Shown piece by piece: positions 71 to 8,500 of a stretch of 24,000 nt of DNA. Positions within the stretch are counted from its first letter, which is position 1. Each line of letters opens with the position of its first letter. Source of the stretch: Enterobacter quasihormaechei (GTDB lineage Bacteria; Pseudomonadota; Gammaproteobacteria; Enterobacterales; Enterobacteriaceae); the NCBI RefSeq assembly GCF_004331385.1, contig NZ_SJON01000029.1, forward strand, positions 414 to 24,413, read 5' to 3'. The notes under the pieces were generated by a model. The model did not search any database, was not told the origin of the DNA, and was given only the letters and a program-made list of their open reading frames with translations. Position numbers and translations under genes: made by a program.

Positions 71-481
71 TCAGGCCTCGAGCGCAGCGCGCAGGCGCAT
101 CATGACGTCGTTTTCTTCTTTCAGGGTTTCTTCTGCCGATCCGCCGCCATCCTCCGCGCATACTGCGATACGTTGCATCTCCCGTCCTGCAAGCTGCATG
201 ACTAAGGCCAGCGATTTCGCGGGAATAGTCACGGTTCGCTTCTCGCGTCGCTCATCGAGCATGGTTTCGACAATCGCCCGTATCTGGCCGATATCCGCGC
301 CACTTTCAAGGCATGAACTTAGCCGACGCAGGACTTCATCCAGTTCCTCATCGGTTAAATCCCAGTCAAGGCAGACGCAACGAATGTCATTTCGATTCCA
401 GCAGGCGAAAACGTATTTCTCGCCATCGAGGTCGGAATGTCTGAACATTTCAAGGGCAATTTCTCTTGCTGTACCAATCAT
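71..481 (-). CDS. Leading-region hypothetical protein (136 aa), paralog of 1309..1731; possibly DUF1380-like (family name from memory, unverified)
   Basis: Intact ORF with an AAGGAG Shine-Dalgarno about 7 nt upstream of the ATG at 481. Shares the N-terminal M-x-GT-x-E motif and the R-x-V-[TS]-[IV]-P-A...L block with the 140-aa ORF at 1309..1731. Lies directly downstream of klcA on the same strand. Confidence 0.6.
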   Translation of the reverse strand: MIGTAREIALEMFRHSDLDGEKYVFACWNRNDIRCVCLDWDLTDEELDEVLRRLSSCLESGADIGQIRAIVETMLDERREKRTVTIPAKSLALVMQLAGREMQRIAVCAEDGGGSAEETLKEENDVMMRLRAALEA

Positions 482-523: not shown

Positions 524-952
524 TCAGTCAAGGGCACGCCAGATGGTGGCGCTTTCCGGATGGGTGTCAGCAAATGCCATAAGCTGCTCATAGCGACGGC
601 AGAAGTGGCGGCACAGCTCTTCATGGTCATGGTTGCTGTGGTGCCAGCTCCGGTGATTCAGTACCAGCGCCGTGAGAATGATCCCCGCCACTTCCCCGCT
701 GACAGTCTGCTCAAACCAGTTGTCCGGATTGCACAGGGTCAGGCTCTCCACGTCAGGCGCCATATATCCGCCACCTTCCGGCAGCCGGTAAAACTGCCAG
801 AATCCCCCCTGATACTCAGGGCAGTAACGCTGGGCATAGGCGTACACGGATGCCTCGGACGTCATAAAATCGCCGCCAAACAAATCAGGCAGGAAAGTCA
901 GGCGCTGCGCACCCTCAAGACGAACAGCATCACAGGTCACGGTCTGGTTCAT
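524..952 (-). CDS. klcA: Antirestriction protein KlcA/ArdB family (142 aa)
   Basis: From MNQTVTC the protein reads ...RLTFLPDLFGGDFMTSEASVYAYAQRYCPEYQGGFWQFYRLPEGGGYMAPD...IWRALD. This matches the KlcA/ArdB pattern I recall (LDFLPxxFG, ALVYxW, YxGxxWxxYxLxxGGFYMAPD, C-terminal IYRAID). GGAGGA RBS lies before the ATG at 952. The track start at 1030 runs into the upstream repeat and is rejected. Confidence 0.85.
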   Translation of the reverse strand: MNQTVTCDAVRLEGAQRLTFLPDLFGGDFMTSEASVYAYAQRYCPEYQGGFWQFYRLPEGGGYMAPDVESLTLCNPDNWFEQTVSGEVAGIILTALVLNHRSWHHSNHDHEELCRHFCRRYEQLMAFADTHPESATIWRALD

Positions 953-1009
953 AGATCCTCCACGGTTAACATATTCTCGGTTCCGGCATCGCCGTGACGA
1001 CACGACAGA

Positions 1010-1164
1010 CCGGCGAAAAGCGGAGGACACAGGGGCGACGCCGCAAGCCGCAGCGCAAAGCCTTCACGGGCTGAATGCACCGTGAAGGGTGCGAACGGGT
1101 GAGGACGGAGGCGTGAGCGAACCCTTGTGGCCGATGCGGCCGGGCTACAGTGAAGTCACGGCGC
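1010..1164 (-). repeat. GC-rich hairpin repeat copy 1 (Frpo-like candidate single-strand promoter) upstream of klcA
   Basis: About 155 bp, closely similar to 2750..2904 and 3735..3889. Central stem CCTTCACGG (1061-1069) / CCGTGAAGG (1080-1088) around the loop GCTGAATGCA. Ends 58 nt before the klcA start. Confidence 0.6.
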
Positions 1165-1308: not shown

Positions 1309-1731
1309 TTACGCGGCCAGCGTCTCCTGTAAGGCGTGAACGTCCTTCAGCTCATTCCTGACGGATTCAGGCTCCTGCCGCCCGGCTTCCCAGGCCATAC
1401 CGATCCGGTTTTCCAGCTCACATTCATAGTTACGCAGGACGCGGGACAGGAGTACCGCCGGAACACTCACCTGACGGTTTGCCGCTTCCCGCTGACGGGC
1501 CAGGAGATCGCTGACAGTCAGATTATTTACCCCCTCCTGGCGGTATTGCGTCATTTTCATTTCGCCGATCGCCTTCATCAGATTCCGGATTTCAGCCCCG
1601 TCCGGTTCTGGCTGGGCTTCACGGCAGGCCACGCTAATCCCCTCTTCCGTCCAGACCAGCAGGACCAGGGGTTCGTCAAACGTGAACATGTTTTCAAGCT
1701 GTACACAAAGTTCTTCGCGGGTTCCGTACAT
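1309..1731 (-). CDS. Leading-region hypothetical protein (140 aa), paralog of 71..481
   Basis: Intact ORF, same strand as its neighbours. Alignable by eye to the 136-aa ORF: MYGTREEL vs MIGTAREI, RQVSVPAVLLSRVL vs RTVTIPAKSLALVM, C-terminal LQETLAA vs LRAALEA. Confidence 0.6.
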   Translation of the reverse strand: MYGTREELCVQLENMFTFDEPLVLLVWTEEGISVACREAQPEPDGAEIRNLMKAIGEMKMTQYRQEGVNNLTVSDLLARQREAANRQVSVPAVLLSRVLRNYECELENRIGMAWEAGRQEPESVRNELKDVHALQETLAA

Positions 1732-1786: not shown

Positions 1787-2008
1787 TCAGTCCTGAAAGG
1801 TTTCGTCCAGCACCAGGGCTTCGCGGTAGGCTTCAAGAAGCAGGGTGTTGATCCGGCGCAGAGTCTGCGCAGCCATACGTTCGGTAAGCGTTGCCGCGTC
1901 GTGCCGGTGCTGCGATTCGAGGCGGTTCAGCAGCATCCGCACGTCACACATGGCATTGCTGAGCGCGGCCACGTCCGCGCGCAGGTTTTCAAGGCCCGGG
2001 TAGTTCAT
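1787..2008 (-). CDS. Hypothetical 73-aa helical protein, translationally coupled to the methyltransferase
   Basis: Its ATG overlaps the methyltransferase stop as ATGA (2005-2008). No motif recognised. Confidence 0.5.
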   Translation of the reverse strand: MNYPGLENLRADVAALSNAMCDVRMLLNRLESQHRHDAATLTERMAAQTLRRINTLLLEAYREALVLDETFQD

Positions 2009-2697
2009 GCCGCCTCCGGATAGTCGGGGTAAAACGCGCCGTCATTGGCCGCCGGCATCCTTCTTGCCCGTTCAACCTGTGCCAGACGTCGAACGCCGGC
2101 GGCGTGGTACTGCTCAAGCATCTCGATCCCGATATAGCGGCGGCTGGCTTCGGCGGCGGCCACGCAGGTGGAGCCGCTGCCGGCGAACGGGTCAAGGACA
2201 ATAGCCCCCGGACGCGTGAGCGATTCAATCAGCGGCCGCAGGCTCTGCACCGGCTTCTCCGTCGGGTGATGTCGGTTGCCCGTGTATTTCCAGGGGATCA
2301 CGTCCGGGATGGGACGGTCCGGGGTTTGCGGCCTTCCCTTTGCCAGCAGGTAGGCACTCTCATGGGTGTAACCCACGAACGTCGATTTTGAGGCGTAGCT
2401 CTTGGCAAAGACGATATGGCCAACCACCCGGAAACCGGCCGTTTTCCACGCATTCAGAAACAGATCCGCGCGGTTCCAGGCATAGAAACTCACCATCAGG
2501 CTGTCATTTTTCAGCACGCGGTACATTTCATGACAGGCGGGCTGGAGCCATTCTGCTGAGTTGTCCCCGGCCAGGGTACGACCGGTACGGTCCTTATAGC
2601 CAACCAGATACGGTGGATCGGTAAGAATAAAATCGACGGCACGCGCCGGAAAACGGGACATCACCTGCACGCAGTCACCCAGAATAAAACGGGACAT
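2005..2697 (-). CDS. Orphan DNA methyltransferase, beta-class (DPPY then FxGxG), probably N6-adenine (230 aa)
   Basis: From MSRFILGDC: motif IV FILTDPPYL lies near the N-terminus and the AdoMet motif LDPFAGSGST near the C-terminus. GAGGAG RBS precedes the ATG at 2697. No restriction endonuclease partner is adjacent. The track N-terminal extension to 3006 crosses the repeat and is rejected. Confidence 0.85.
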   Translation of the reverse strand: MSRFILGDCVQVMSRFPARAVDFILTDPPYLVGYKDRTGRTLAGDNSAEWLQPACHEMYRVLKNDSLMVSFYAWNRADLFLNAWKTAGFRVVGHIVFAKSYASKSTFVGYTHESAYLLAKGRPQTPDRPIPDVIPWKYTGNRHHPTEKPVQSLRPLIESLTRPGAIVLDPFAGSGSTCVAAAEASRRYIGIEMLEQYHAAGVRRLAQVERARRMPAANDGAFYPDYPEAA

Positions 2698-2720: not shown

Positions 2721-2904
2721 GGCACCCTCTTGCGCCGTGCCGCCACAAAAACCCGGCGAAAAGCGGAGGGCGCAGGGGCGACGCCGCAAGCCGCAGCGCA
2801 AGCCTTTCACGGGCTGAATGCACCGTGAAAGGTGCGAACGGGTGAGGACGGAGACAAGTGAACCCTTGCGACCGCAGCGGCCGGGTTAGCGTGAAGGCAC
2901 GGCG
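2721..2904 (-). repeat. GC-rich hairpin repeat copy 2 (Frpo-like candidate single-strand promoter) upstream of the methyltransferase
   Basis: Near-identical to 3706..3889, including the 5'-UTR-proximal GGCACCCTCTTGCGCCGTGCCGCCACAAAAAC block. Perfect 10-bp stem 2803-2812 / 2823-2832 with loop GCTGAATGCA. Ends 24 nt before the start codon. Confidence 0.6.
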
Positions 2905-3185: not shown

Positions 3186-3219
3186 AGGACACCCCCTCCC
3201 CGGATGGTGTCCTTTTTTT
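3186..3219 (+). terminator. Rho-independent terminator, plus-strand orientation, abutting the stop codon of the minus-strand ORF 3219..3686
   Basis: AGGACACC (3186-3193) pairs with GGTGTCCT (3206-3213), followed by a T-run to 3219. No T-run follows the hairpin in the minus sense. Confidence 0.55.
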
Positions 3220-3686
3220 CAGCGCCCCTTCACGTGGTCGATAGCGAACTGCAGCGTGTCCCAGTTAAAACCGATGCCTGCATCGTGGCTGTGGTCGCAG
3301 ATACGCATGGCTTCTGCAATTTCTTCCTCCGACAGACTGTCATCAAGCGACAGAAAATCATCTTCCAGCCAGAACGTCCCCATACACAGTGCATCCGGTG
3401 GGTACTGCTTCAGCCTGGCGATGAGCCCTGCCACCGTCACATCATCACGACATGCAGGACGCGACGGCAGGACGCGATCGGCGATGTCGTTCCAGCACCA
3501 GTCATCGCACTCCGGTACGGGTTCCAGCAGGGTCTGTAATTCCACGCCCGGCAGCTGGGAGAGCTGCTCCAGAACCTCCCCCAGAGAAAGTCGCTCTCCG
3601 CTGGCATCTTCACTCCCCAGGTAATGGTGATTGATATAGACGGCAAACTCGCCGTTATCGAGTTCAATACAGGTCAGTCTGAACAT
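3219..3686 (-). CDS. Highly acidic leading-region protein (155 aa); candidate anti-defence/DNA-mimic protein, function unknown
   Basis: From MFRLTCIELDNGEF I count 31 D+E versus 10 K+R. GAGGA RBS lies about 8 nt before the ATG at 3686. Directly preceded by repeat copy 3. The track extension to 3932 crosses the repeat. Confidence 0.6.
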   Translation of the reverse strand: MFRLTCIELDNGEFAVYINHHYLGSEDASGERLSLGEVLEQLSQLPGVELQTLLEPVPECDDWCWNDIADRVLPSRPACRDDVTVAGLIARLKQYPPDALCMGTFWLEDDFLSLDDSLSEEEIAEAMRICDHSHDAGIGFNWDTLQFAIDHVKGR

Positions 3687-3705
3687 GGTTGTGTCCTCAG
3701 CATCC

Positions 3706-3889
3706 GGCACCCTCTTGCGCCGTGCCGCCACAAAAACACGGCGTAAAGCGGAGGACGCCAGGGCGACGCCGAAGCCGCAGCGCAAGCCCTTCACGGGCTG
3801 AATGCACCGTGCAGGGCGCGAACGGGTGAGGACGGAGACAACGTGAACCCTTGCGACCGCAGCGGCCGGGTTAGCGTGAAGGCACGGCG
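3706..3889 (-). repeat. GC-rich hairpin repeat copy 3 (Frpo-like candidate single-strand promoter) upstream of the acidic ORF
   Basis: Same unit as 2721..2904. The central stem has one mismatch (CCCTTCACGG / CCGTGCAGGG). Ends 20 nt before the start codon at 3686. Confidence 0.6.
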
Positions 3890-4006
3890 GGTAATTTCTT
3901 ACGGGAGATATAAAGCGGAGGGAAAATTTCACATTAAATTAAAATGTGATTTACATCACAAAACAATACATTATAATCGCCGAAAAATTAAGCGATTAGT
4001 TTTGAC

Positions 4007-4144: not shown

Positions 4145-4525
4145 TTATTTAGCTGTTTTGCAGGCTGAGACTAACGATGATCGGAGTACGCGAAACTCTA
4201 TCACGTCGTTACGCCCGAGGAGCTTGAGGGCGTCTGGGGAACAGGCCATTGCAGCCTTCAGTGCCAGTGAAATGGCGAGGCTGCGGTAGCGGTTTTGCAG
4301 CATGATGGGAGCATCAGCAGGCACTGCGTCAGACACCTGTAGATACGCTTTCCATGCATCTGGCTGTGCCAAAGCATCACGTTCCACGGCTTCGAGCTGG
4401 TCTTCACGTTCCTTTTGCTTTTGCTTGGCCATCTGGTCAAGAACCGCCACTGTGGCTGCCGCATTCACCGCACCAGGTATTGCCAGTGTGAGCGCCACAA
4501 ACAAAATTGCAGTATTACACTTCAT
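4145..4525 (-). CDS. Exported hypothetical protein (126 aa) with Sec signal peptide
   Basis: The N-terminus MKCNTAILFVALTLAIPGAVNA-AAT is a classical signal peptide with an AxA cleavage site. Its start overlaps the stop of a 33-codon upstream ORF (ATGA). Confidence 0.6.
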   Translation of the reverse strand: MKCNTAILFVALTLAIPGAVNAAATVAVLDQMAKQKQKEREDQLEAVERDALAQPDAWKAYLQVSDAVPADAPIMLQNRYRSLAISLALKAAMACSPDALKLLGRNDVIEFRVLRSSLVSACKTAK

Positions 4526-4623
4526 TTGTCCTCCTCATTGTTGTTCATCTCCCTTATGTCCTGACAGTTCAACAGCTCGCTGGCCTCCGCCAGCGTCAGC
4601 CCCGCTCTCTCAACCCTTTGCAT
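4522..4623 (-). CDS. Possible 33-aa small protein (MQRVERAGLTLAEASELLNCQDIREMNNNEEDK)
   Basis: Not in the ORF track because it is under 60 aa. GGGAGGG Shine-Dalgarno lies 4-5 nt upstream of the ATG at 4623. Its stop overlaps the next ATG (ATGA at 4522-4525). Confidence 0.35.
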   Translation of the reverse strand: MQRVERAGLTLAEASELLNCQDIREMNNNEEDK

Positions 4624-4670
4624 CAGTCCCTCCCGGGCTGTCTGGTTACCATTCTGAATGATGTTCCTGC

Positions 4671-4934
4671 TCAGGATCGGTTCTTCGGCTTTTTATCGTC
4701 AAACGCCAGGAGAACACCGAGGCCGATCAGCGAGGCGTAGCAGACCTGCATCGCAATTGTCACCGGCAGGGAGATATTATCAACCAGAACACCGGGAACC
4801 ACGACGGCAACACCTGCCAGTATCATTCCCCTGCCGATCTTTTTTACCCGTTCCGGCCACTGAGATTCAGGCACGTTCCGGGCGCGCAGAAAGTTATGAA
4901 TGCACTGCTCTGCTTTTTGTTTAATCACTGACAT
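4671..4934 (-). CDS. Small membrane protein (87 aa, two hydrophobic spans)
   Basis: Hydrophobic spans GMILAGVAVVVPGVLV and VTIAMQVCYASLIGLGVLLAF. The start lies 3 nt after the stop of the upstream ParR-like gene. Confidence 0.55.
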   Translation of the reverse strand: MSVIKQKAEQCIHNFLRARNVPESQWPERVKKIGRGMILAGVAVVVPGVLVDNISLPVTIAMQVCYASLIGLGVLLAFDDKKPKNRS

Positions 4935-4937
4935 GTT

Positions 4938-5600
4938 CTAGTCTCCGAATGCCCGGCGCATATTTTTCTTTATCCTGGTCGCTTCAGCGGATACCGGTGC
5001 GGCAGGCTCCGCTGGTTTCTCCGGCACTGCAGCCATACTCACGTCAGCCGTACCAGCCATCTGCTGAACCAGAACCTGCAGCTCGCTGACCGTGCCGGGC
5101 GGTACCGGCATACTGGCCAGCAGACGCGGCAGCTCCGGTGCGGTCGTATGCAGGGCCAGACCGGTGATAATCAGGTTTCTCAGCAGCTCTCCGCGCAGGC
5201 GGGATGACACGCCCGTCAGCACACGCTCAACCCGTTCACTGCTCCGGTCATCCTGAAGCGTCAGGGTGTAACGCCGGCGCTGGTATTCCGTCTCCGGTGA
5301 CATGGCCAGAGCCGCCACGCCACCATCAGGCTCATCAGGAAGTCCTGAGAGTGAAGACCAGGTGCCGGATACCAGCGCCATCACGGCACAAAGCCGGATA
5401 GCGCTCAGATGCCCGTCAAAGAACACCGGGATCAGCGCCGGTAAACGTGCATCCGTCTGGTACATCACCGCCCCGGCGGTGGCGGCGGTCCGGATGAAGT
5501 CACCACGCAGGGGCTGTGAGATGGTGCTGATGGTCGCCATCGCCGCGATGTCGGTGCGATCGTCGCTGTGCAGATAGAAAGAATACTGGCCGTCCGGCAC
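4938..5600 (-). CDS. Putative ParR/StbB-type partition adaptor (220 aa), assigned by position only
   Basis: Begins 2 nt after the parM stop, the standard parM-parR order. No motif recognised, and it is longer than R1 ParR. Confidence 0.5.
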   Translation of the reverse strand: MPDGQYSFYLHSDDRTDIAAMATISTISQPLRGDFIRTAATAGAVMYQTDARLPALIPVFFDGHLSAIRLCAVMALVSGTWSSLSGLPDEPDGGVAALAMSPETEYQRRRYTLTLQDDRSSERVERVLTGVSSRLRGELLRNLIITGLALHTTAPELPRLLASMPVPPGTVSELQVLVQQMAGTADVSMAAVPEKPAEPAAPVSAEATRIKKNMRRAFGD

Positions 5601-5602
5601 GT

Positions 5603-6577
5603 TTAGTCCTCTTTATTGTAAAGGGCAATCTCTCTGGCCAGCGCCAGCTGCGGATCGCCGATAACCTCGATACGGTCAGGAGCCAGAGGCCAGGCCTGAC
5701 GGATAGCCTCTTCAATGAGGGATGCCCCTCCCCCGACCAGGAATACCCGGTTAACGTTCCTGAAGGCCGTCAGCTCACTGGTGACGCGCGCGCCCAGGGA
5801 AGTGATTGCCTCTGTAATTTTGTTCAGAACATTGTCAATTTTTCCGGCATCGTTGATCACTCGCTGCAGATACTGACGATCATTGCGGTTGCGGATGACC
5901 GTGTCAGCAATAAGCGCGCTGGTTTCGCTGTCTGCAGCCCGCAGCGCGCCTGCAGCTGCGCGGGTGACCTGTGACACGCCGACAGACGGATTGCCGTGTA
6001 CCGCACTGATATCATCAAACTGTCCGACAATCACGCCGGCATCGAGCGTGGTTCCGCCGAGATCGATAATCAGTGTGGTCTCAGCGGGTCCGGGCTTCAG
6101 CTCGGCGAGACGGGAGAACGCCGCCGGCAGTGATTCCGGCATCACCTTCACGTCCGTTACGGTAAATGCCCTGCCCTTATTCAGAACCAGCTCACGCATC
6201 AGGTTTTCCCGTTTGCGTCGGATGTTCTCCTCGTTCCGCTGGCAGTCCCCGTCATAATACTCGCTCAGGGGCAGCGTCACGGTCAGGCTCACCGGCTGCG
6301 GCTCAAGTCCGCTGTTCAGCAGGGCATGATGCACGGCCAGCAGGTTGAGATCACCGTACTGGTATTCCACGTTTGTCGTCGGGATGGCATCCCGGCTGAC
6401 GCTGTCCCAGGTGTATTTCAGCGTGCCCACCTGATAGTTGAACGTTGCGGCACTGAATTCCGCCACTTTCCAGCCATGCCGGAAGGAGTTAGCTGAAACC
6501 CGGGTCTGCAGCTCGTTTCCTTCAAACCATGCCAGCTTAACATTAGTTGAACCATCATCGCAGTAAATATTCATCAT
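5603..6577 (-). CDS. parM: Actin-like plasmid segregation ATPase ParM/StbA (324 aa)
   Basis: Actin-fold phosphate motifs: N-terminal IYCDDGSTNVK, IIDLGGTTLD and the C-terminal FLVGGGA. GGAG RBS. Followed by an adaptor-position gene and preceded by an AT-rich repeat region. Confidence 0.85.
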   Translation of the reverse strand: MMNIYCDDGSTNVKLAWFEGNELQTRVSANSFRHGWKVAEFSAATFNYQVGTLKYTWDSVSRDAIPTTNVEYQYGDLNLLAVHHALLNSGLEPQPVSLTVTLPLSEYYDGDCQRNEENIRRKRENLMRELVLNKGRAFTVTDVKVMPESLPAAFSRLAELKPGPAETTLIIDLGGTTLDAGVIVGQFDDISAVHGNPSVGVSQVTRAAAGALRAADSETSALIADTVIRNRNDRQYLQRVINDAGKIDNVLNKITEAITSLGARVTSELTAFRNVNRVFLVGGGASLIEEAIRQAWPLAPDRIEVIGDPQLALAREIALYNKED

Positions 6578-6806: not shown

Positions 6807-7238
6807 ATGAAACTGCAGCTTTTCAGCACCGGGAAAGCACTCCCGCCACAGGCCCATCCGTTGTTTGCAGACCTGGCCAGCTGCGGTTTTCCCAGCCCTG
6901 CCGCTGACTATGTCGAGTCCGACCTGGATCTCCATGATTACTGCATACGGCACCCGAGCGCGACTTACTATCTCCGTGCCAGCGGTGACAGCATGTCCGA
7001 CGGCAGCCTTTACAATGGCGATCTGCTGGTTGTGGACAGTGCAGAGAAGCCCCGGCACGGCGATATTGTTGTGGCCAGCGTGCAGGGGGAGTTTACGGTT
7101 AAACGGCTTCTGCTGACGCCACGACTGACGCTGCAGCCAATGAACGCCGCCTGGTCGCCGATTTATCCCGACCCGGACGATCTGGATATCTTTGGCGTCG
7201 TCACGCACATCATCCACCGCCCGAGGGAGATGTACTGA
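6807..7238 (+). CDS. umuD: UmuD/MucA-family SOS mutagenesis protein (143 aa)
   Basis: Cys-Gly self-cleavage site ([13 protein letters not shown]), catalytic Ser (ASGDSM) and Lys (FTVKRL). AGGAGG RBS. LexA box upstream. Overlaps the next gene by one base (stop TGA 7236-7238, next ATG 7238-7240). Confidence 0.9.
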
Positions 7239-8500
7239 TGTTTGCCCTGGCCGATGTGAACAGCTTTTATGCCAGCTGCGAACGTGTTTTCCGCCCTGAT
7301 TTGAAAGGAAAGCCGGTTGTGGTGCTCAGTAATAACGATGGCTGCGTCATCGCAAGAAGTGCCGAGGCAAAGCCCTGGATCAAAATGGGCACGCCGTGGT
7401 TTCAGATGAAAAACGAAAAGTACCCGGAAAAAATATACGCGTTCTCAAGCAACTATGAACTTTATGCCTCGATGTCAGCGCGCGTGATGAGCTGCCTGGA
7501 GGAGCTGGCCCCCAGGGTGGAACAGTATTCGATTGACGAGATGTTCCTCGACCTGACCGGCGTTGAGCACTGCATGGACCTGGAGGACTTCGGCCGGCAG
7601 CTGCGCCAGCACGTGTATGACTGTACCCGTCTGACCATCGGCGTGGGTGCCGGGCCGACGAAAACCCTGGCAAAATCAGCCCAGTGGGCCTCAAAGGAGT
7701 GGAAACAGTTTCGTGGCGTGCTCGCCCTGACCCGGGGGAATCCTCAGCGAACGCGGAAACTGCTTTCACTGCAGCCGGTCGAAGAGATCTGGGGCGTGGG
7801 AAACCGTATTGCACGCAAGCTCAATGTTCTTGGCATCAGGACCGCGCTCGATCTGGCCCTGACGAACCCGGCCTTCATCCGGAAAAATTTCTCCGTCGTT
7901 CTCGAGCGAACAGTGCGCGAACTGAACGGGGAAAGCTGCATGTCGCTTGAAGAAGCACCGCCTACTAAACAACAGATTGTCTGCAGCCGCAGTTTTGGCG
8001 AGAAGATCACTGAATACGATTCGCTGCGCCAGGCTGTCTGTCAGTACGCAGAACGGGCCTCAGAAAAGCTGCGTAAAGAGCGCCAGTACTGCCGGCATAT
8101 TTCCGTATTCATCAAAACGTCTCCGTTCGCCGTTAAAGAGCCTTACTACGGCAACGTGGCCACGGAGAAACTGCTTACCCCCACTCAGGACACCCGGGAC
8201 ATCATTGCGGCCGCCACAACGGCTCTGGAGCGTATCTGGAAGGATGGGCACCGGTATGCTAAAGCCGGTGTGATGCTGAATGACTTCACCGGCTCCGGAG
8301 TTTCGCAGCTGCAGCTGTTCGACGAACGTCCTCACAGCGCTGAGCTGATGAAGGTTCTCGATGGCATTAATCATTCCGGGCTGGGACAGGTCTGGTTTGC
8401 AGGACGAGGGATTGCGCCTGCATGGCAGATGAAACGCGATATGCTCTCCCCCGCGTACACCACACGCTGGAAAGATATCCCCATAGCGAGGATCGGTTAA
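7238..8500 (+). CDS. umuC: UmuC/MucB-family Y-family DNA polymerase V catalytic subunit (420 aa)
   Basis: [44 protein letters not shown] is the canonical UmuC N-terminus. SIDEMFLD catalytic motif is present. Confidence 0.92.

Follow-up and report, generated by a model that had tools for sequence, protein, structure and literature searches.

The Locus and Its Plasmid Setting

The window, which is the whole analysed stretch of 24,000 nucleotides, is 98–99.6% identical to many Enterobacter plasmids, and NZ_CP104838, a conjugative IncFIB/FII plasmid of the MOBF class, is near-identical to it. The genes of NZ_CP104838 follow each other on one strand in the order hok, psiA, psiB, a parB-like gene, several small genes, DUF1380, klcA/ardB, DUF1380, a hypothetical gene, a DNA methylase and finally the gene of a 155-residue acidic protein, which is the subject of this analysis; beyond it lie the stbB/parM stability genes. 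By these matches, the window belongs to an Enterobacter plasmid of the IncFIB/FII and MOBF types, of which it forms the leading region, with the 155-residue protein encoded at the far end. A sequence-only reading of the same DNA had described an island with klcA and an orphan methylase, and this setting was recovered, with psiB/psiA and hok further on. The features of the locus are as follows.

71..481, minus strand: DUF1380 paralogue a, directly 3' of klcA (NCBI name; under the Pfam threshold)
524-952, minus strand: klcA/ardB (PF03230, 1.5e-25)
990..1163, minus strand: repeat copy 1, 5' of klcA/ardB (repeat search, three-copy alignment)
1309..1731, minus strand: DUF1380 paralogue b (PF07128), its N-terminal half a remote homologue of the C-domain of the 155-residue protein
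2005-2697, minus strand: orphan N6/N4 DNA methylase (PF01555)
2733..2904, minus strand: repeat copy 2, 5' of the orphan methylase (repeat search, three-copy alignment)
3219..3686, minus strand: coding sequence of the 155-aa acidic protein, P0001 (translation, composition, 62 close homologues, dN/dS)
3219-3221, minus strand: its stop codon
3222..3449, minus strand: C-domain, residues 80-155, mainly helical, phrog_10258 family (hhalign, HMM, model)
3450..3686, minus strand: N-domain, residues 1-79, predicted beta-beta-beta-alpha-beta-alpha (stand-alone and fused relatives, model, conservation)
3694..3698, minus strand: Shine-Dalgarno GAGGA, 7 nt 5' of ATG 3686 (read from the sequence)
3717..3889, minus strand: repeat copy 3, a GC-rich hairpin immediately 5' of the gene; candidate single-strand DNA promoter of the class 2 type
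4938-6577: stbB/parM stability genes (Plasmid_stab_B and ParM in Pfam)
6807-7238, plus strand: UmuD-like gene (Peptidase_S24 in Pfam)
6807..8500, plus strand: umuD/umuC-like operon, opposite in orientation to the gene of the 155-residue protein, the usual outer boundary of leading-region islands of this kind according to PMC11541004

Leading regions carry genes unrelated to defence too, and an association with neighbours is weak evidence. They are nevertheless enriched for anti-defence genes, a third of the commonest families are uncharacterised, and the islands that hold these genes typically have umuCD as their outer border (Samuel et al., PMC11541004), a layout with which the window agrees. 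In all 14 orthologous loci, the island ends on its outer side with the gene of the 155-residue protein, at the border to umuDC or parMR, and the series MTase-hyp73-DUF1380-KlcA adjoins it in most of them. The link to parMR is not conserved, as umuDC intervenes between the gene and parMR in six loci.

A Conserved and Unusually Acidic Gene Product

The mechanically called reading frame extends 5' to a GTG at 3932, which would give 237 aa. Conservation among the homologues begins only at ATG 3686 and not further upstream, and because this codon is also preceded by the GAGGA Shine-Dalgarno sequence, it was taken as the start. The protein translated from the minus-strand frame 3219-3686 begins with MFRLTCIELDNG and contains 17 Asp and 14 Glu (together 31) against 2 Lys and 8 Arg (together 10), resulting in a pI of 4.21 and a net charge of -21 at pH 7. 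The same counts and a net charge of about -21 had been given by the sequence-only reading, and the acidic run to which it drew attention is present as EDDFLSLDDSLSEEEIAE at residues 108-125. Both parts of the protein are acidic, with a pI of 4.13 for residues 1-79 and of 4.30 for residues 80-155. Ranked by net charge per length among the 5,040 ATG-started open reading frames of its genome that encode 140 aa or more, the protein is the fourth most acidic, and this property is kept in all 17 full-length homologues (pI 4.08-4.43).

Full-length orthologues were found in Enterobacter, Leclercia, Citrobacter, Kosakonia and Scandinavium, with intact length down to 47% identity. Pairwise dN/dS values among 14 orthologues from species-representative genomes lie between 0.10 and 0.25 at a dS of up to about 2, which identifies a real gene under purifying selection. 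The gene is thus real, conserved and unusually acidic. Annotation of the homologues, and of the two families to which the halves of the protein belong, is hypothetical throughout. The protein had been called an orphan, and this description has to be given up, as orthologues occur in five genera and both halves are members of wide families (146 representatives in one search, and 371 and 118 cluster matches for the two modules).

A Fusion of Two Modules

The full-length protein matched nothing in Pfam, even at E values up to 10, and likewise nothing in NCBIfam. A HMMER search of 1.84 billion representatives yielded 146 matches (counted as representatives at 50% clustering), each of them either to residues 1-79 or to residues 80-155. 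Since the matches split so cleanly, the protein is a fusion of two modules. An origin by deletion between adjacent N-domain and C-domain genes was considered and rejected, as the two were found as separate neighbours in no examined locus.

The N-domain has 118 cluster matches and is marked by the motifs L-x-N-G-[DE]-x-A and V-P-x-[DE](3)-W-x-W-N-D. It occurs alone, as a protein of about 96 aa usually encoded just after ArdB/KlcA genes, and at the N-terminus of a subset of proteins of about 188 aa listed as "DUF5983 family protein", an NCBI name owed to their C-terminal domain PF19419. With this subset the 155-residue protein has the pattern LDNGDEA...PVPxxEEWxWNDV in common as well as similar neighbourhoods (PF03230 genes, DUF932, PsiA, relaxase) on Enterobacterales plasmids and islands, whereas it lacks PF19419, the family-defining domain. 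Canonical DUF5983 proteins of 163 aa differ in that their N-terminus, PF25638, is unrelated to the N-domain, and identity of the N-domain with this canonical DUF5983_N was rejected at an hhalign probability of 1.4%.

The C-domain is characterised by the conserved residues W106, D109-D110, H134-D135-A136, G139 and N141-W142-D143. Its stand-alone family comprises acidic proteins of 65-90 aa from plasmids, ICEs and phages (371 clusters), which have the positions W, ED, HDA and G-I-N-W-D in common and correspond to phrog_10258 and phrog_30886. Residues 112-150 of the 155-residue protein match phrog_10258 at E 2.1e-5, and 26 of 32 stand-alone relatives match it as well (best 1e-11). The conserved W, ED and HDA..GINWD positions of both phrog families are also those of the 155-residue protein; they are single-domain proteins, whereas here the module is fused to a second one.

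A more distant relationship leads to DUF1380 (PF07128), a family of roughly 140-aa leading-region proteins of IncF and IncI plasmids. When the C-domain family was aligned by hhalign to 16 DUF1380 proteins from Enterobacteriaceae genomes, the N-terminal half of the latter (residues about 3-92 of 137-140) was matched with a probability of 97.3% and an E value of 2.1e-11 over 81 columns, against an E value of 0.57 for the reversed-sequence control. The plain C-domain HMM also finds DUF1380 proteins directly, including both copies of pESBL (up to 2e-8). At the superfamily level and by these profile comparisons, the C-domain and the N-terminal half of DUF1380 are remote homologues, and the hhalign and direct HMM matches together make the former a distant paralogue of both DUF1380 genes of the island. 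DUF1380 proteins resemble the 155-residue protein in being acidic and in residing in the same island, with two copies in the window and two in pESBL, and a DUF1380 gene also follows klcA or a methylase. They differ from it in several respects: the 155-residue protein stays under the Pfam threshold, lacks the C-terminal half of DUF1380, has an HDA..G.NWD motif that is absent from DUF1380 and carries an unrelated extra N-domain. Paralogue a carries the DUF1380 name in the NCBI annotation of near-identical plasmids, but its match to PF07128 falls short of E 0.001; even so, it is the better of the two copies in hhalign with the C-domain family (E 2e-5 vs 0.085 for its sister copy).

Three C-domain relatives of about 150 aa (P0259, P0268 and P0303) are fused to DUF6900 (PF21841), a sign that the C-domain module combines freely with other small domains. 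When 32 stand-alone C-domain and 12 N-domain relatives were compared with Pfam and NCBIfam, the only domains found were the fusion partners DUF5983_C and DUF6900. A tblastn search with each half against 50,697 phage genomes gave zero matches. In profile searches, the 155-residue protein was matched neither by ArdB/KlcA (PF03230) nor by ArdA (PF07275) and did not reach the gathering score of DUF1380 (PF07128), and the DUF5983 domain PF19419 is absent from it; Ocr was matched neither by the PDB sequence-profile search nor by Foldseek nor by the phage tblastn search. The Pfam and NCBIfam searches are in line with the earlier impression that the protein is not ArdA, ArdB, PsiB or Ssb. In the literature on DUF1380, DUF5983, DUF4942 and DUF932, no functional study was found.

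Predicted Structure

AlphaFold2 modelling from 17 sequences reached a pLDDT of 74, and an alignment of 116 sequences to which C-domain relatives had been added reached a pLDDT of 86 with a pTM of 0.49. Stand-alone N-domain proteins were left out of this alignment, as MAFFT put their WxWND motif onto the C-domain. The model consists of two small globular domains joined by a flexible linker, with residues 71-80 weakly predicted. Its C-domain is built of four helices (pLDDT 87-97 except for the loop 131-140), and the N-domain was modelled at a pLDDT of 77-92.

Foldseek searches of 350,542 PDB chains gave best E values of 0.29 for the model with pLDDT 74 and of 0.88 for the model with pLDDT 86, and no ArdA, Ocr, KlcA or other mimic chain was listed. 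BFVD yielded nothing beyond weak similarity to small phage proteins that are uncharacterised. A sequence-profile search of the PDB with both domain alignments returned only noise, such as a calmodulin EF-hand at E about 0.1.

The Upstream Hairpin Repeat

A GC-rich repeat of about 190 nt is present in three copies, directly 5' of klcA, of the methylase and of the gene of the 155-residue protein. The sequence-only reading had placed copy 3 of a leading-region repeat in front of the last of these genes; hairpin copies were found at all three places, and they show a relationship to single-strand promoters that have been published. As the template for the island genes, the plus strand would be the transferred strand; over copy 3 it is predicted to fold at -56.8 kcal/mol, compared with -47.7 +/- 3.8 for shuffled sequences (z = -2.4). 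The repeat is kept 5' of 10 of the 14 orthologues and persists at a protein identity as low as 47%. The Citrobacter orthologues (L060-L063) are without a blastn-detectable repeat directly upstream, and most of them are without an adjoining methylase; their transcription may depend on a different class of promoter.

Two sites of pESBL-EA11 are 75-77% identical to copies 2 and 3 over 64 nt (E 3e-7 to 4e-5), and both sites lie 44-107 nt 5' of start codons, namely those of klcA and ardA. Taken together, all pESBL matches of the repeat (72-77% over 64-83 nt) are located 5' of klcA, of ardA and of a DUF1281 gene, and the last of these is upstream of the first gene after umuDC. Class 2 single-stranded DNA promoters of pESBL have been mapped 5' of klcA and ardA by 5' RACE (PMC12672017). 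The window repeat resembles these promoters in that its copies are related in sequence, that a hairpin is predicted for the transferred strand and that klcA is preceded by one copy here too. The likeness is, however, short and modest. As the match extends over a short stretch (64 nt), repeat copy 3 is only tentatively assigned to the class 2 single-stranded DNA promoters, and it is plausible that the 155-residue protein would be transcribed early from single-stranded DNA.

It had also been stated that this is the sole gene driven by repeat copy 3. A consensus scan found no minus-strand terminator after the gene, and the next gene in the 3' direction has its own repeat copy; we only infer that copy 3 drives a single gene.

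Related elements occur at the same island border in other plasmids. In the E. coli plasmid p14EC033c (L051, 2457-5868), a related hairpin core lies directly 5' of ardA in the slot at the umuDC border. This core is 83% identical to part of the window repeat, and the ardA gene adjoins an SOS-response-associated peptidase and umuDC, which is the same border position that the gene of the 155-residue protein occupies. In pESBL-EA11 (L076, 3272-4706), the corresponding slot after umuDC and before the methylase is held by a DUF1281 protein and a small ORF, and the stretch upstream of it is 72-74% similar to the window repeat. DUF1281 or DUF1281_C is also found near N-domain and C-domain genes elsewhere (L047 and L071). 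Just outside repeat copy 3 of the window, a near-consensus sigma-70 promoter (3950-3977, plus strand; TTTACA, a 16-nt spacer and TATAAT, 11/12 matches) faces away from the gene of the 155-residue protein and is without a close plus-strand gene.

Neighbourhoods of the Stand-Alone Modules

Genes for stand-alone C-domain proteins were found immediately 3' of a genuine ardA with a TrwC relaxase nearby (L073), after DUF932 and adjoining a TrwC relaxase (L074), next to DUF4942 together with DUF932 and KorA (L002), and in an array of small ORFs that includes ArdC-N (L072). Others are located in phage-like contigs without partition or conjugation genes. N-domain genes lie directly 3' of PF03230 antirestriction genes at three loci (L047, 2132-3210, where the two genes overlap, and L066 and L067, both 4232-5243), which suggests an operon-level link between ArdB/KlcA and the N-domain module. 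In a CP4-like island of Salmonella that also contains PF03230, DUF932 and CbtA/CbeA (L049), RadC and DUF987 flank an N-domain gene, and others were seen near nikA/relaxase, PsiA and DndB. Acidity is a consistent trait of both families, with a median net charge per 100 aa of -13 for the C-domain family and of -10 for the stand-alone N-domain family. Given these neighbourhoods, both modules regularly accompany anti-restriction genes in early-entry regions.

Possible Roles of the Protein

The reading that we prefer, with a probability of roughly 0.55, is that the 155-residue protein is an early-expressed factor for plasmid establishment or anti-defence that acts through two independent acidic binding modules; its early expression, its action by protein binding and any role in defence evasion are what we infer. 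In conjugation, the recipient would receive the plus strand of the window as single-stranded DNA, and the hairpin repeat would fold into a promoter-like duplex from which host RNA polymerase could transcribe the gene before the complementary strand is synthesised. The product would be non-enzymatic, each acidic domain displaying a conserved surface rich in Trp, Asp and Asn, with WxWND in the N-domain and HDA..G.NWD in the C-domain as candidates. It might then bind and neutralise one or two host proteins that attack or silence incoming DNA, working alongside KlcA/ArdB and the orphan methylase.

Position makes the protein a fair anti-defence candidate. The sequence-only reading had proposed an anti-restriction or anti-defence protein that mimics DNA: in general terms, an anti-defence candidate that enters early is a reasonable idea, strengthened by synteny, promoter element and neighbour association, while mimicry of the ArdA/Ocr type found no support beyond charge and position. 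The protein is a reasonable candidate and not a discovery.

A more far-reaching version, which is tentative, sees in the two halves founding members of two widespread, uncharacterised families of small acidic inhibitor modules that have no relative among the solved structures. The C-domain/DUF1380 superfamily and the WxWND domain would each be directed against a distinct host defence or DNA-processing protein, so that the Enterobacter fusion would be a dual-target anti-defence protein made from single-stranded DNA. The separate modules travel with ArdA, ArdB/KlcA, ArdC, DUF932 and RadC in plasmids, ICEs and phages, and the 155-residue protein ties together DUF1380, the DUF5983-named subset and the tiny acidic family of phages and ICEs as modular acidic domains that accompany anti-restriction genes. 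Whether a resistance plasmid lives through the first minutes after entering a new host is decided by its leading region. If either module inhibits a defence system, hundreds of hypothetical genes of plasmids, ICEs and phages would be annotated, and the two DUF1380 genes of F-like and IncI1 plasmids would be explained.

Rather unlikely is a role outside defence, in which the protein serves establishment or regulation during entry, for example in complementary-strand synthesis, in the SOS/RecA response or in the activity of the orphan methylase or KlcA, or is a passenger of the parMR/stbAB stability module. Leading regions do encode managers of single-stranded DNA that do not act in defence, such as PsiB, Ssb and ParB-like proteins (PMC11541004), the fold of the C-domain and DUF1380 recurs beside DNA methylases (window and pESBL) and beside DUF4942 (L002), and in the window the gene itself sits between the methylase and the stbB/parM operon. 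This last arrangement is, however, broken in the six loci with an intervening umuDC, whereas the gene keeps its own promoter repeat and its synteny on the methylase side; moreover, Pfam and NCBIfam detected no DNA-binding or enzymatic motif, and the stand-alone relatives in phage-like contigs have no partition or conjugation genes around them.

More improbable still is that the protein is a DNA mimic. ArdA (PF07275) and T7 Ocr are acidic DNA-mimic inhibitors of Type I restriction; a protein of this type, its acidic surface imitating B-form DNA, would fill the groove in which Type I restriction-modification enzymes, and perhaps BREX or other DNA-binding defences, bind DNA and would thus protect unmethylated incoming DNA. 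The 155-residue protein resembles ArdA and Ocr as a small, very acidic product of an early-entry gene, with a net charge of -21 that places it fourth in its genome and with 18 of 31 acidic positions kept acidic across the family. It also occupies, behind a related hairpin, the slot that ardA fills in p14EC033c. ArdA was not found in the genome of the window or in four other carriers, which is compatible with its substitution by the 155-residue protein, the sample being small and its members related.

Charge and position are, however, all that speaks for mimicry, which is otherwise unsupported. There is no sequence similarity to ArdA (no Pfam match at E up to 10), and the Foldseek comparison that had been recommended as a check gave nothing significant for either predicted model in the PDB, where ArdA, Ocr and other mimics are represented. 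Instead of an elongated rigid array, such as the three-domain fold with DNA-like acidic charges of the solved ArdA structures, the model (pTM 0.49) has two globular domains on a flexible linker, and the invariant residues include Trp, Gly, Asn, His and Pro besides Asp, so that nothing in the fold or in the Trp/Asn/His/Gly motifs is specific to mimicry. Furthermore, a C-domain relative co-occurs with a genuine ardA in one operon-like array, the one gene immediately 3' of the other, which suggests that its role differs from that of ArdA and that the two are not redundant.

A spurious or decaying reading frame, with acidity as a by-product of composition, could be suspected from several frameshifted or truncated database copies and from the missing family annotation, and is effectively refuted by the dN/dS values, the good Shine-Dalgarno sequence, the intact length in five genera, the hundreds of independent relatives of each domain and the confident fold prediction (pLDDT 86). 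The copies in question (P0012, P0049 and P0057) carry local frameshifts or truncations; the gene has been lost or broken in some plasmids and would therefore be dispensable in some hosts.
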